A stretch of DNA of 24,000 nt from an uncultured Alphaproteobacteria bacterium (GCA_963774345.1 CAVZFB010000035.1:33915-57914), one strand, 5' to 3'. Positions 541-10,771 are shown, counted from the stretch's first letter. Numbers and translations: made by a program. Notes: a model not told the origin generated them from the letters alone.

Positions 541-1593
541 TCAGCCGCGGTGCTGGCGCTCGACCTGCATGTTGGCGAGAAACGGCACCAGCGGGTGGCC
601 GCCCATCGCAACGATCGCGCGCGTGTCTAATGCGACCAGCGCCTCGCGCTGCGGCGGGGGCAGGCGAAAGCGGTCGGCGTAGGCGCCGGGATCGGCGAGA
701 AAGGCGGCGCGGCTTGCCTCGTCATGGGCGAGGCCTTGGAGCGCCACGGTCAGCTCGACGAGGTCGGGCCTGATCGACGGGTAGTGGGGATCAGGCGGTG
801 GCTCCGGCGGGCTGAACCAGCCGAGCGAGGCGTAATTGTGGTGCCAGCTCGGCTCCAGCGAGACGATGTCGGGTTTGCGCTCGCCAAGCGCGCCGGCGGC
901 GCAGGCCCAGCAGCGCAGTTCGACATTGCCCGAGGCGTCGAGCTCGGCCGCGTCATAGCCGATCAATGATTTGAGGTGGCCGGCGGCGAGCCGGTCGAGC
1001 GCCCGCTGATCCCAGGCGAGATCGGGCTCGGCATAGCGCTCGGTGCCCGGGTAATGCGACATGCCGCCGCTCGCCAGCACCGCCGTCTTCAACCCCATCG
1101 CCGTAACGATCCGCGCCAGGGCCTGGCCAAAGGCATAGCAGCGCTCCATCGTCGGCTGCGGCGGCAGATAGGCGTTGACGTAGATCGGCAGGACCGGGTC
1201 GCTGACATCGAGATGGGTCAGCGGGATGCCGAGCGCGTAGTCGATCTTGGCGACGCTGGTAAAAGCCGGGTCGAACCCCTCGGCGTACATCCGGCGCACG
1301 ATCTCGAAGCCGATCTCGCCCGGCACCCGCCAATCAAACTGGTGGCCGGCGAAGGAGCCCTTGGCTTCGCCGCCGACATGGATCGTGAACGGCGGGGCCG
1401 CGGTATGAAAGAACTGCTCGGCATGGTCGTTGGCAAAGATGACCCACAGATCGGGACGCAGCGCCCGGAACCGAGCACCGATCTCGGCGGCCGCCTGTTT
1501 GACGCGGGCGACCGTGCCTCGGTCCTCGGTTTCCGGCATCGTAAAGAATTGCGGGGCATGGGGCAGCATCGCCCCGCCAATCACGCTTGACAT
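541..1593 (-). CDS. Class III extradiol ring-cleavage dioxygenase, LigB-type catalytic domain fused to a LigA-like C-terminal domain
   Basis: The N-terminus MSSVIGGAMLPHAPQFF, then FANDHAEQFF, GGMSHYPG and NVELRCW resemble the LigB-family metal and catalytic motifs. The C-terminal ~80 aa (LAHDEASRAAFLADPGAYADRFRLPPPQREALVALDTRAIVAMGGHPLVPFLANM) aligns by eye with the protocatechuate 4,5-dioxygenase alpha (LigA) fold region. I prefer the ATG at 1593 over the TTG at 1629. Confidence 0.85.
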   Translation of the reverse strand: MSSVIGGAMLPHAPQFFTMPETEDRGTVARVKQAAAEIGARFRALRPDLWVIFANDHAEQFFHTAAPPFTIHVGGEAKGSFAGHQFDWRVPGEIGFEIVRRMYAEGFDPAFTSVAKIDYALGIPLTHLDVSDPVLPIYVNAYLPPQPTMERCYAFGQALARIVTAMGLKTAVLASGGMSHYPGTERYAEPDLAWDQRALDRLAAGHLKSLIGYDAAELDASGNVELRCWACAAGALGERKPDIVSLEPSWHHNYASLGWFSPPEPPPDPHYPSIRPDLVELTVALQGLAHDEASRAAFLADPGAYADRFRLPPPQREALVALDTRAIVAMGGHPLVPFLANMQVERQHRG

Positions 1594-1663
1594 CGCAACT
1601 CTTTCACCGGATCGATCGTCGATCGACAATATCGTGGCTCATGCCAGGCTCGCGAGCGCCAAA

Positions 1664-2989
1664 ATGTTGCCCGAGGAAACGCCCCAAATGCCGCCAGCCG
1701 CCGACGATCCGCAGAGCGATCGGGTCAGCGCCGACCTCCCCGCAGGCCCATCCGCAGATGCAGCCCCGGATGCGCCGCCGAGCGTCGCAAGCGAGCCCGA
1801 GGGGAGAAGCGAAGCCTCGCCCGGTGAACAGCTGCGCCGTCGCCGGCGACGTCGGCGACGACGCCCGCCCAGTGAGGCAAACCCTGCGACGGGCGGAGAC
1901 CCTGCGGTGATATCGGCCGATGAAGCGCCGTCAGGCGCGAATGCCACCGTCGTCGATCTGGGAGGCGGCGACGGCAGCGGCGAGGCAGGCTCGACGCCGG
2001 GTACGGCAGCATATACGGCCGGCGATCGCCTGCCCCGCCGGCGGCGGCGTCGGCACCGTCCGCTGCCCCATGGTTTGGGATCCGCGCTGCCGCCGGCCGA
2101 TCGCGATGCGGCGACACAGAACGCAACAGGTGACGGCTCTCAGCCGGAGAGGACGGCTAACGAGGAAGCTGGCGCAGCCGCGGCCACGCCCTACGGCGCG
2201 GGTGGTACGACAGGTTATCTCCGGCTGCCGGTGCGACGCCGGCGTCGGCTTCCGCGACCGCCGGGCCTGCAACGCGGAACGGCGGAGGTGGCGCCACCAA
2301 ACGGGGATACGCCCGCGGGCGACACCGCGACTGACGCGCCGCGTGCGGAAGGCGAGTTCCCGCCCCGCCGGCGCCGGCGACGCCCACCCCCGCGTGTCGG
2401 CGAAGCTGTGCCGGCCGGCCAAGACCAATCAGCCGACGGCGCGCGGCGGGATACCCCTCGACCGCCGTACGGCCGGGAACCCCACCGCCGCCCTGGCGAG
2501 GAAGGGTCACGCGACGGTCAACCCCAGCGATTTGGGGAGACGCCCTATCGCGAGCGCGGCCGTGGACCGCGTGATGGGGACAGCAGCGGCCCACGCGGCC
2601 GCGAACGCGGCGACCGCAACGACCGCGGCAGGGGCCCGGGCGGCCCGAGAGATGGGCAGCGCGGGCGGGGACGCGACGCGCCGGCAAGGCGCGTCGAGCA
2701 GAAGCTCTATACGTTAGAATCGATGGTCGATCGCGGTTTCGAGGATGTCTCCGACGAGGCCGAGGATAGCGGGACCCGGCGGGTTCACTGGACGATCATC
2801 AAGCGATCGATCGCCGACCAGAGGAGCGGCAAGGCGATGTCGACCACATATGTCTTGCAGCGTGAAAACGCCGAGACCGAGTTTCCCAATCTCGGGGCCG
2901 CCCGCGCTGCCGCCAACAAGACCATCGTCCACCCGGAAAAGCTGACGATGTCAAAGGCAGAACACGTCGCCGCCAAAAACAGCAAGTGA
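1664..2989 (+). CDS. Hypothetical Arg-block low-complexity protein: acidic/neutral spacers alternating with four poly-Arg tracts, an RG/RD-rich segment and a ~100-aa Lys-containing C-terminal domain
   Basis: Long ORF in frame 2. The track start (TTG 1430) overlaps the divergent dioxygenase, so I prefer ATG 1664 (GTG 1634 or ATG 1688 are possible). Between 1664 and ~2690 the translation has no Cys, Trp or Lys, unlike the off-frame translations of the same DNA, which are full of C/W/R. The C-terminal part (VEQKLYTLESMVDRGFEDV...HWTIIKRSIADQRSGKAMSTTYVLQRENAETEFPNLGAARAAANKTIVHPEKLTMSKAEHVAAKNSK) looks like an ordinary folded domain. I do not recognise a family for it. Confidence 0.6.
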   Translation: MLPEETPQMPPAADDPQSDRVSADLPAGPSADAAPDAPPSVASEPEGRSEASPGEQLRRRRRRRRRRPPSEANPATGGDPAVISADEAPSGANATVVDLGGGDGSGEAGSTPGTAAYTAGDRLPRRRRRRHRPLPHGLGSALPPADRDAATQNATGDGSQPERTANEEAGAAAATPYGAGGTTGYLRLPVRRRRRLPRPPGLQRGTAEVAPPNGDTPAGDTATDAPRAEGEFPPRRRRRRPPPRVGEAVPAGQDQSADGARRDTPRPPYGREPHRRPGEEGSRDGQPQRFGETPYRERGRGPRDGDSSGPRGRERGDRNDRGRGPGGPRDGQRGRGRDAPARRVEQKLYTLESMVDRGFEDVSDEAEDSGTRRVHWTIIKRSIADQRSGKAMSTTYVLQRENAETEFPNLGAARAAANKTIVHPEKLTMSKAEHVAAKNSK

Positions 2990-3026
2990 GCTGAGCACCC
3001 CCGCGGCGGCCCAGCTGTCGGCGGCG

Positions 3027-3428
3027 CTATTCGGCGGCGCTGCGCTCCCGCATTTTCTGGTACCGCCCCTGCGGCACGATTTCGGCGACGGTGCCGTCGG
3101 GCGAGCGGTATTTGATCGGGATCTCGCCGGGCTTGGACAGGATCGTCCCGCCATTGGCGACAACCTTCTCGGCGAAGCCCTCGTGGTCCTCGACTTCGAT
3201 GCCGAAATGGTGGATCGCCGGGCCAGGGCCGACCATCTTGGCCTCGGCGTCGTCCTCGCTGTCATAGACCATCAATGCCAGATCGATATAGCCGTCGGTC
3301 ATGTGCCGCGAGATGTGCCCGCGCGACCGGCCCGTCCCGACCTGGCGGAAGCCATATACATTCTCATAGAACCGGGTCGCTTTTTCGAGGTCGGTCACCT
3401 TCAGCGCGACGTGGTTGATCCGTGCCAT
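3027..3428 (-). CDS. VOC-family (glyoxalase/bleomycin-resistance/dioxygenase fold) protein
   Basis: MARINHVALKVTDLEKATRFYENVYGF...HHFGIEVED is a typical VOC beta-alpha-beta-beta-beta module. ATG 3428 is preceded by AGGAGA (reverse complement of 3433-3440). It starts 10 nt after the stop of the upstream SBP gene. Confidence 0.88.
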   Translation of the reverse strand: MARINHVALKVTDLEKATRFYENVYGFRQVGTGRSRGHISRHMTDGYIDLALMVYDSEDDAEAKMVGPGPAIHHFGIEVEDHEGFAEKVVANGGTILSKPGEIPIKYRSPDGTVAEIVPQGRYQKMRERSAAE

Positions 3429-9061: not shown

Positions 9062-10771
9062 ATGGCGATGACCATTTCGCGCGCCGCGTATGCCGGGATG
9101 TTCGGCCCCACCACCAGCGATCGGCTGCGGCTGGCCGACACCGAGCTCGTCATCGAGATCGAGAGCGACCACACAATCTATGGCGAAGAAGTCAAGTTCG
9201 GCGGCGGCAAGGTCATCCGCGACGGCATGGGGCAGAGCCAGCGGAGCCGCGCCGACGGAGCGGTCGACACTGTTATCACCAACGCCGTGATCCTCGACCA
9301 TTGGGGCATCGTCAAGGCCGATATCGGCATCAAGGACGGCCGCATCAGTGGCATCGGTAAGGCTGGCAATCCGGATATCCAGCCGGGTGTCGACATCGTG
9401 ATCGGGCCGGGGACGGAGGCGATCGCCGGCGAGGGCCGCATCGTCACCGCCGGCGGGATCGACTCGCATGTCCATTGGATCTGCCCACAGCTTGCCGAAG
9501 AGGCGCTTTACAGCGGCATCACGACAATGCTCGGCGGCGGCACCGGGCCGGCCGCCGGGACCGCGGCAACGACCTGCACGCCGGGGCCCTGGCATCTCGC
9601 GCGGATATTGCAGGCGGCGGAGGGGATCCCGGTCAATCTCGGCTTCTTCGGAAAAGGCAACGCCTCGGAGCCGCGGGCATTGGTCGAGATGGTCGAGGGC
9701 GGCGCCTGCGGGCTCAAGCTGCACGAAGATTGGGGCACCACGCCGGCGGCGATCGACACCTGCCTCGGGGTCGCCGAGCAGCTCGATATCGCGGTCGCGA
9801 TCCACACCGACACGCTCAACGAATCCGGTTTCGTCGAGGATACGATCGCCGCCTTCAAAGGCCGCAACATCCACGCCTTTCACACCGAAGGCGCCGGCGG
9901 CGGCCATGCCCCCGACATCATCAAACTATGCGGGCTGGCGAACGTCCTGCCGTCTTCGACCAATCCGACCCGCCCCTACACGATCAACACCGTCGCCGAG
10001 CATCTCGACATGCTGATGGTGTGCCACCACCTCGATCCGCGCATTCCCGAGGACGTGGCCTTCGCCGAGAGCCGCATTCGCCGCGAGACGATCGCCGCCG
10101 AGGACATTCTGCACGACCTCGGCGCCTTCAGCATGATGTCGTCGGACAGCCAAGCCATGGGCCGGGTCGGGGAGGTCATCATCCGCACCTGGCAAACCGC
10201 CGACAAGATGAAGCGTCAGCGCGGCCCCCTTCCTGAAGACAGCGAGCGTGCCGACAATTTCCGGGTCAAACGTTATGTCGCGAAGTACACGATCAACCCG
10301 GCCTTGACCCATGGGCTGGCCGAGCAGGTCGGCTCGGTCGAAGTGGGCAAGCTCGCCGATCTCGTCCTATGGTCGTCGGCCTTTTTCGGCGTCAAGCCGG
10401 ATCTGGTGCTGAAGGCGGGGATGATCGCCGCGGCCTTGATGGGCGATCCTAACGCCTCGATTCCGACCCCACAGCCGGTCCATTATCGGCCGATGTTCGG
10501 CGCTTTCGGCCGCGCGCTGTCCGTCTCGACCGTCACATTTCTGCCGGTTGTGGCGATTGAGCGCGAGCTGCCGGCCCAACTCGGGCTGCAGCGGATGGTG
10601 CTGCCGGCGCGCGGCATTCGCGCCATCGACAAGAAATGCATGGTCCACAACGCCGCATTGCCACATATCGAGGTCGACCCGGAGACCTACGAAGTACGGG
10701 CCGATGGCGTGCACCTGACTTGCGAGCCGGCCACGGTATTGCCGCTGGCTCAGCGTTATTTCCTCTATTGA
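9062..10771 (+). CDS. ureC: Urease subunit alpha
   Basis: [29 protein letters not shown]..., [46 protein letters not shown] and MLMVCHHL are canonical nickel-site and flap motifs. 569 aa. Confidence 0.98.

Follow-up and report, generated by a model that had tools for sequence, protein, structure and literature searches.

A Stellaceae gene family encoding proteins with conserved poly-arginine tracts, alternating charge blocks and a candidate new C-terminal domain

The Arg-block gene and its start codon

We analyzed a 24,000-nucleotide (nt) stretch of DNA from an uncultured Alphaproteobacteria bacterium (GCA_963774345.1 CAVZFB010000035.1:33915-57914), hereafter the window, in which an open reading frame (ORF) at positions 1664-2989 of the plus strand, counted from the first letter of the window, encodes an arginine-rich protein, the Arg-block protein. 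The gene is monocistronic, divergent from a LigB-type dioxygenase gene and convergent with a VOC/glyoxalase gene. The translation of the ORF is the protein described in the initial annotation, which was made from the sequence alone: a long N-terminal region with four poly-Arg tracts, an RG/RD-rich segment, and a small folded C-terminal domain (C-domain). A script placed the four tracts (R10, R6HR, R5, and R6) at exactly the positions reported, found the RG/RD segment and the C-terminus of normal composition where they had been located, and counted no Lys, Cys, or Trp in the first 341 residues, as had been claimed. The reported nine Lys in the last ~100 amino acids (aa) should read eight in the last 100 residues. 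The features are listed in Table 1.

The start codon had been placed at ATG 1664, but the true start is 24 nt downstream, at ATG 1688 behind the invariant Shine-Dalgarno box CGAGGAAAC. This box was unchanged in 15 of 15 aligned loci and precedes a conserved ATG in ~45 loci, and the N-terminus after ATG 1688, MP(P/H)xxDDPxSD, is conserved across relatives. Six of the 15 aligned loci (L028, L035, L038, L041, L053, L068) lack ATG 1664, whose frame is also broken by 1-2-nt indels situated between the box and ATG 1688. ATG 1664 was therefore rejected as the start. Since the box, ATG 1688, and the N-terminal motif are conserved and ATG 1664 is not, the product is 433 aa long, and the comparison of loci makes it almost certain that nt 1688-2989 constitute one real protein-coding gene. 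As read from the sequences, the conserved layout comprises an acidic N-terminus, 2-4 Pro-flanked poly-Arg tracts with acidic or neutral spacers between them, an RG/RD segment, a domain predicted to be a β-sheet plus a helix, and an invariant C-terminal tail.

Table 1. Features of the Arg-block gene (positions in the window)
Feature	Position (nt)	Strand	Basis and remarks
Corrected coding sequence, 433 codons	1688-2989	+	Stop codon 2987-2989; ATG 1688 conserved, frame open in relatives
Shine-Dalgarno box CGAGGAAAC	1672-1680	+	Core GAGGAA at 1673-1678; 9 nt upstream of ATG 1688; box-to-ATG distance 7-9 nt
Acidic N-terminal spacer, 49 aa, net charge -8, motif MPPAADDPQSD	1688-1834	+	Charge count, family conservation
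Arg block 1 (R10), followed by PP	1835-1864	+	Script placement; top-conserved island of disordered region
Arg block 2 (R6-H-R), preceded by GDRLP	2036-2059	+	Script placement; conservation 0.92
Conserved island PVRRRRRLPRPPG, including Arg block 3 (R5, 2234-2248)	2228-2266	+	Column conservation, script
Arg block 4 (R6), flanked by FPP and PPP	2366-2383	+	Script placement, column conservation
RG/RD-rich segment, 43 aa, conserved GRGRD at end	2549-2677	+	Script; conserved in homologous proteins
Conserved C-terminal domain, about 95-97 aa	2696-2986	+	Family identity, AlphaFold2 models
Internal ATG (MVDRG...), false start used by gene callers, giving 86-88-aa calls	2723-2725	+	P0006; homologue comparison

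Coding status of the long reading frame

The region is 69-75% GC, and a short gene of ~88-105 aa behind non-coding GC-rich DNA, with the long ORF as a high-GC artefact, has to be weighed as an alternative. Many database calls are indeed only 86-178 aa long, long shadow ORFs are present in other frames, and the GC content at third codon positions (GC3) of the upstream part is atypically low: GC by codon position is 0.83/0.71/0.70 in the N-terminal part, compared with GC3 of 0.80-0.84 in neighboring genes. Comparative data nevertheless oppose the short gene. Among 185,579 species genomes scanned, 155 loci were confirmed as related, and the best 80 of these, all from metagenome-assembled genomes (MAGs), were examined. 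In ~70 of these 80 the C-domain frame is open for 280-500 codons upstream and contains 2-5 in-frame poly-Arg tracts. When stops were counted over the 43 loci that have an identifiable start in frame with the C-domain, the gene frame was stop-free in 41, the +1 frame in 7, and the +2 frame in none. Frame-blind nucleotide alignments of the N-terminal region with six relatives (L001, L002, L005, L007, L014, L016; 66-90% nucleotide identity) contained 28 indels, and all 28 were multiples of 3. Substitutions at third positions were enriched about twofold in the disordered N-terminal region (for example, 25, 23, and 55, or 88, 93, and 165, at the first, second, and third codon positions) and more strongly in the C-domain (for example, 7, 5, and 26). 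Protein-level conservation extends upstream past the internal Met (GRGRD....EQKLYxLES), and this Met is replaced by Val, Thr, Leu, or Ile in most homologues. Full-length database proteins of 420-470 aa with the matching layout also exist (P0335, P0336, P0343, P0360).

The open frame, the indels in multiples of 3, the substitution pattern, the conserved Shine-Dalgarno box and ATG, the conservation of the tracts, and the protein-level conservation across the internal Met all argue against the short-gene model, which is effectively refuted by the comparative data. The initial annotation had proposed an orthologue alignment as a check on the frame and had named conservation of only the last ~100 codons as the outcome that would contradict it. 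Instead, the N-terminal frame is also kept, and the long Arg-block ORF holds up as real coding sequence.

A shadow ORF of 258-265 aa at 1941-2717, in the +1 frame relative to the gene, overlaps the disordered region and contains stops in 36 of the 43 loci. It looks more coding-like by GC3 because its third positions are the GC-rich first positions of the gene (0.83). Coding sequence rich in Arg, Pro, Gly, and Ala in high-GC genomes thus inverts the usual GC3 signal.

Truncated calls and frame-broken loci

A search with the C-terminal 102 aa matched only "hypothetical proteins" of 86-178 aa. One of them, the 88-aa call P0006, is identical to the C-terminus encoded in the window and starts at the internal Met of MVDRG. 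Several intact loci are also called as 86-88 aa: P0082, P0070, and P0102 share their contigs with L056, L062, and L063, whose open frames span 481, 410, and 583 codons.

In nine loci (L004, L013, L020, L024, L030, L042, L047, L059, L061), the frame of the start motif differs from that of the C-domain. All nine belong to MFD MAGs, which are long-read assemblies, and the short-read MAGs are unaffected. The frame-broken cases examined contain isolated 1-nt indels, one of which, in L024, lies inside the conserved EQKLYTLES codons at window-equivalent nt 2714. The indels of L003 compensate each other (net −3), restoring the overall frame. Since all nine are long-read MAGs, the frame breaks are probably assembly errors.

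In contig L084 (ERZ25039468:contig_33707), which is near-identical to the window, the gene is split into calls at 630-1406 and 1412-1678, one of 88 aa and the other the 258-aa P0341. Owing to indels relative to the window, P0341 switches between the +1 and the true frame; the view that it is a pure wrong-frame call was rejected, since it is a frame chimera caused by the contig indels. Gene callers, and indel errors in long-read MAGs, easily cut short or break up coding regions of this composition, and Arg-rich proteins of similar type are therefore probably under-counted.

Two copies of the locus were seen in four MAGs on different contigs (L006/L010, L020/L022, L029/L032, L035/L040). The two copies often lie at contig ends and are alike in tract pattern; instead of true paralogues, they may represent strain haplotypes or duplication during assembly.

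Arginine tracts and charge pattern of the disordered region

The four Arg blocks are flanked by EQL/PPSE, RLP/HRPL, LPV/LPRP, and FPP/PPPR, with Pro in the flanks of each. In 20,000 composition-preserving shuffles of the disordered region scored for the longest Arg run, a run of at least 5 was obtained in 4.5%, a run of at least 8 in at most 5 shuffles, and a run of 10 in one. The Arg tracts are thus more than a chance outcome of composition. Codons inside the tracts are mixed (CGC, CGG, CGT, and CGA), and TRF and a repeat finder detected only weak and short similarity among the four block regions (71-79% over 28-48 nt), spaced at 198, 195, and 135 nt. Because the codons are mixed and the TRF scores weak, an origin of the tracts as slippage-type DNA repeats was rejected. 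An old modular duplication, with "G-[DE]-x-[LF]-P-Rn-P-P" as its unit, would be compatible with this similarity.

Conservation was evaluated in 41 full-length family proteins of 369-501 aa. Each has 2-4 tracts of R4 or longer, the longest being R8-R10 in 38 of the 41, and Pro is the commonest residue on either side. Lys is nearly absent from the disordered region and normal in the C-domain. Mean column identity reached 0.93 for Arg block 1 with its PP and 0.92 for Arg block 2, followed by PVRRRRRLPRPPG and block 4 (0.65 each) and then the RG segment, and the spacers between blocks are poorly conserved. The mean over the whole disordered region was 0.38, as against 0.81 for the C-domain. The Arg tracts are therefore the best-conserved islands of the disordered region. 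Conserved homopolymeric Arg tracts are unusual in bacteria. Bacteria reportedly have few low-complexity regions, which tend to be less conserved than globular domains (PMC8004648). In the present family, the tracts are the top-conserved part of the disordered region throughout a family-level clade.

In the window, the net charge switches back and forth between the spacers (-8, -7, -3, and -3) and the blocks (+10, +7, +5, and +6), and an RG-rich stretch of +7 follows the last block. The disordered region contains 18% Arg and 14% acidic residues; its fraction of charged residues is 0.32, and its net charge per residue is +0.04, the net charge of the protein being near zero because of the acidic spacers. 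Kappa, calculated with our own approximate implementation, was ~0.29, compared with 0.167±0.026 in 300 shuffles (z = 4.9). The same approximate procedure gave 0.42 for residues 1-240 and a family median of 0.315. The charge-block description of the initial annotation is borne out by the alternation and by a kappa above that of the shuffles, and the disordered region qualifies as a blocky polyampholyte, which is a physicochemical class and not a homology family. When the disordered region alone was used as a query, matches were confined to the Arg-block family.

The C-terminal domain

Two AlphaFold2 models, one built from 25 sequences and the other from 111, share a topology of two long β-strands, two shorter strands, and one helix, in line with the small folded domain that had been predicted. 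The core is modelled with a predicted local distance difference test (pLDDT) score of about 85-90. Model confidence is low in the invariant tail NKTIVHPEKLTxSKAEH, and this suggests that the tail is a motif dependent on a partner or on oligomerization.

Searches of Pfam, NCBIfam, PHROGs, and PADLOC gave no matches at E ≤ 1 for either the whole protein or the C-domain. Only noise was obtained when ten distant relatives were compared with family profile libraries and when 111 alignment members were compared with Pfam at E ≤ 10. A profile search of PDB sequences returned nothing significant (best, a BLUF protein, E 0.29), and Foldseek searches of PDB and BFVD with two AlphaFold2 models returned nothing at E ≤ 0.001 (best E 0.03-0.1). 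The assignment of the C-domain to no named family thus stands, and the confident match to a characterized family that might have overturned it did not appear in the profile and structure searches. Literature searches found no paper on the Arg-block family. The C-domain is a candidate new domain family.

Pfam DUF6894 shares the "G-x-E-F-P-x-L-x-A-A-R" hairpin-helix motif and matched 5 of 111 family members weakly, but its best E value of 0.025 is far below the gathering threshold, and DUF6894 is itself without known function. The predicted long twisted antiparallel β-strands packed against one helix recall SecB, LptE/GNA1162-like lipoproteins, and the Rad52/ERF core. The SecB resemblance reached a Foldseek probability of up to 0.90 with a root-mean-square deviation of 2.5 Å over 56 residues, but E was ~1 and the TM-score 0.36, and there was no Pfam match to SecB. 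Phage ERF/SSAP models (probability up to 1.0) and RAD52 were also among the weak matches (E 0.03-1, TM-score ≤ 0.43), again with no ERF or Rad52 match in Pfam, as were LptE-like sandwiches. Taken over these folds, E is at least 0.03, the TM-score at most 0.43, profile support is absent, and the topology is generic. A Walker-A reading of "AVGKT" in short relatives was rejected, since the Stellaceae version is "AANKT" and lies within a predicted helix.

Family distribution and distant relatives

The protein had been called an orphan. This does not hold, since more than 270 database relatives and 155 genome loci were found, and 123 family representatives are present among 1.84 billion 50%-identity clusters. 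Where the source gives a family-level taxon, it is Stellaceae (now Allostellaceae in NCBI, order Rhodospirillales), apart from one contig labelled Micropepsaceae. No relatives were found in IMG/VR, INPHARED phages, or PLSDB plasmids. The family is small, previously undescribed, and almost confined to MAGs of uncultured soil Stellaceae (Alphaproteobacteria).

In a few distant relatives of 112-174 aa, the same domain bears Lys/Arg/Gly-rich N-tails and KGGKK C-tails but no Arg blocks, and some basic tail is present in every relative. Because these short relatives carry basic tails in place of Arg blocks, the ancestral state looks like a basic tail plus the domain, and the Arg-block expansion would be specific to the Stellaceae lineage. 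Three short relatives, P0234 (L088 6001-6411), P0242 (L089 6001-6411), and P0226 (L091 4612-4950), lie in co-directional arrays of small unannotated genes together with GreA-like, peptidase M78, GapR-like, SspB, phage-type RNA ligase, and RF-1-like genes. These arrays look like a phage or another mobile element, but no relatives were found in IMG/VR or INPHARED. The neighborhoods of the distant short relatives were uninformative.

The C-domain could carry the real function, for example chaperone-like or partner-binding, with the disordered region as a lineage-specific regulatory or solubility tail that has no specific polyanion ligand. The difference in mean conservation between domain and disordered region, the presence of the domain without Arg blocks in distant relatives, and the weak SecB (E ~1) and LptE-like fold resemblances fit such an arrangement. 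Against it, the Arg tracts are conserved at 0.92-0.93, which argues for a direct function rather than filler, and no relative lacks a basic tail. On balance, we consider such a domain-centered function unlikely.

Comparison with known systems and proposed function

The closest parallel in logic is the C-terminal region of RNase E, the BR-body scaffold. Its alternating charge blocks are necessary and sufficient for RNA-dependent condensates in Caulobacter (bioRxiv 10.1101/272286). Both regions are disordered and alphaproteobacterial, and in both Arg-rich positive blocks alternate with acidic ones. The Arg-block protein differs in lacking the RNase E/G catalytic domain and any sequence homology, in that its positive blocks are homopolymeric (R5-R10) and bracketed by Pro, in the N-terminal position of its disordered region, and in the attached ~95-aa module of an undescribed family. 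It has no Pfam match to RNase E/G (PF10150 plus S1), and its folded part is only ~95 aa. The likeness would be one of analogy, and no homology is implied.

Protamines and other sperm nuclear basic proteins share clusters of consecutive Arg separated by short non-basic spacers. They are short, very Arg-rich, strongly cationic, and eukaryotic, whereas the Arg-block protein is 433 aa long with a folded domain, and its disordered region, as given above, is only 18% Arg and 14% acidic and close to neutral; no protamine match was found in Pfam. RG/RGG RNA-binding tails, as in DEAD-box helicase extensions and eukaryotic RGG proteins, resemble the 43-aa RG/RD segment that adjoins the folded domain family-wide, but the Arg-block protein is without helicase, RRM, or KH domains, and its RG alternates with Asp/Glu (RGRD, RERG) instead of forming classical RGG boxes. 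By mechanism, the protein may be a variant of known charge-block or Arg-rich disordered scaffolds, built on a candidate new domain.

The conserved Arg tracts, the RG segment beside the domain, the basic tails in every relative, and the charge-segregated, near-neutral chain point to multivalent polyanion binding. We propose, tentatively, that the Arg-block protein resides in the cytoplasm and is a multivalent polyanion binder, with RNA as the likeliest ligand, or a condensate scaffold, a reading that no result contradicts and that we regard as plausible, if short of probable. The Arg tracts and the RG segment would supply binding valency, and the acidic spacers between the blocks would make the chain a near-neutral, charge-segregated polyampholyte. 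Opposite blocks could then pair within and between molecules, leading to self-association or to condensation with nucleic acid. The folded C-domain might serve as an oligomerization module or as a dock for a specific partner.

Several observations weigh against this interpretation of the gene and its product. Genomic context points to no ligand, and the neighboring genes (LigB-type dioxygenase, VOC/glyoxalase, and an ABC substrate-binding protein) are unlinked to RNA or DNA. High GC content alone favors Arg over Lys. The C-domain has an acidic loop and a net charge of only about +1, and it shows no detectable similarity to known nucleic-acid-binding folds, the best Foldseek E values being 0.03-0.1. 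The kappa figures come from our own approximate implementation. The GC3 of the disordered region, 0.70-0.73, is below the 0.80-0.84 of the neighbors, and the nine frame-broken loci could reflect relaxed constraint or pseudogenes in some lineages.

The tracts might act on DNA instead. In that case, the protein would be a nucleoid-associated factor for DNA compaction whose Arg blocks bind and bridge duplex DNA in the manner of protamines or histone-H1-like proteins, with the acidic spacers tuning affinity. Spaced Arg tracts resemble protamines, the Lys-rich tails of the short relatives resemble bacterial H1-like proteins, and a GapR-type DNA-binding gene is found close to one short relative, in a region that looks mobile. 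However, the near-neutrality of the disordered region (+0.04 per residue) is unlike protamines, RG/RGG-type segments are more typical of RNA binders, and Pfam gave no protamine, histone, or HU match; DNA compaction is a doubtful role. The ligand could also be a polyanion other than nucleic acid, for example polyphosphate in granules or an anionic polymer of the envelope, since poly-Arg binds any dense polyanion. The sequence shows neither a signal peptide nor a transmembrane segment, and no ppk, ppx, or CHAD neighbors were found; a ligand of this kind appears quite unlikely. It would be highly improbable for the protein to be a precursor or relative of Pro/Arg-rich membrane-penetrating or antimicrobial peptides. 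The R8-R10 tracts and RLPVRRRRRLPRPPG do recall cell-penetrating and Bac7/PR-39-type peptides, but a conserved folded domain and acidic spacers are present, whereas an export signal, processing sites, and neighboring transporter or immunity genes are not.

The polyanion-binding and condensate reading can be taken one step further, to a Stellaceae condensate or compaction scaffold that has no described bacterial counterpart. Here the R8-R10 "stickers" and acidic spacers would coacervate with RNA, DNA, or polyphosphate, and the new small fold would nucleate or anchor the assembly. We put this forward as a speculative possibility that is probably not correct. If true, the protein would be an independent bacterial analogue of protamine or nucleolar Arg-rich proteins, having arisen when an older domain's short basic tail expanded. 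The family offers a natural, sequence-simple system for testing the way in which charge blocks bring about condensation and the binding of polyanions in bacteria.

Neighboring genes and intergenic elements

In 44 loci, the dioxygenase gene likewise stands in divergent orientation beside the Arg-block gene. The initial annotation had stated that genomic context gives no functional hint, and we agree, since the pairing is conserved yet uninformative. A promoter and terminator scan of 1450-3150 gave no sites, and Rfam showed no element in the Arg-block locus.

A self-complementary element, GATCGATCGTCGATCGA, lies at 1610-1626 on the plus strand between the dioxygenase and Arg-block genes, and is conserved in the closer loci (the window, L001, L002, L005, L007, L014, L016). 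It might serve as an operator for the divergent promoters in this region, or be the first codons of the dioxygenase gene if TTG 1629 starts that gene. The dioxygenase ORF occupies 541-1629 on the minus strand with TTG 1629 as its listed start. Because MSSVIGGAMLPHAPQ is the conserved N-terminus of the dioxygenase family, comparison of the sequences suggests ATG 1593 as the real start, leaving an intergenic region of ~94 nt.

Elsewhere in the window, Rfam matched 5_ureB_sRNA (RF02514) at 9214-9500 on the minus strand (89.8 bits, E 2e-22). The offset to L084 places this match in antisense orientation inside the urease alpha-subunit gene, in its 5' part, within a ureD-ureA-ureB-ureC cluster. The model probably matches conserved urease coding sequence here and not a real small RNA.

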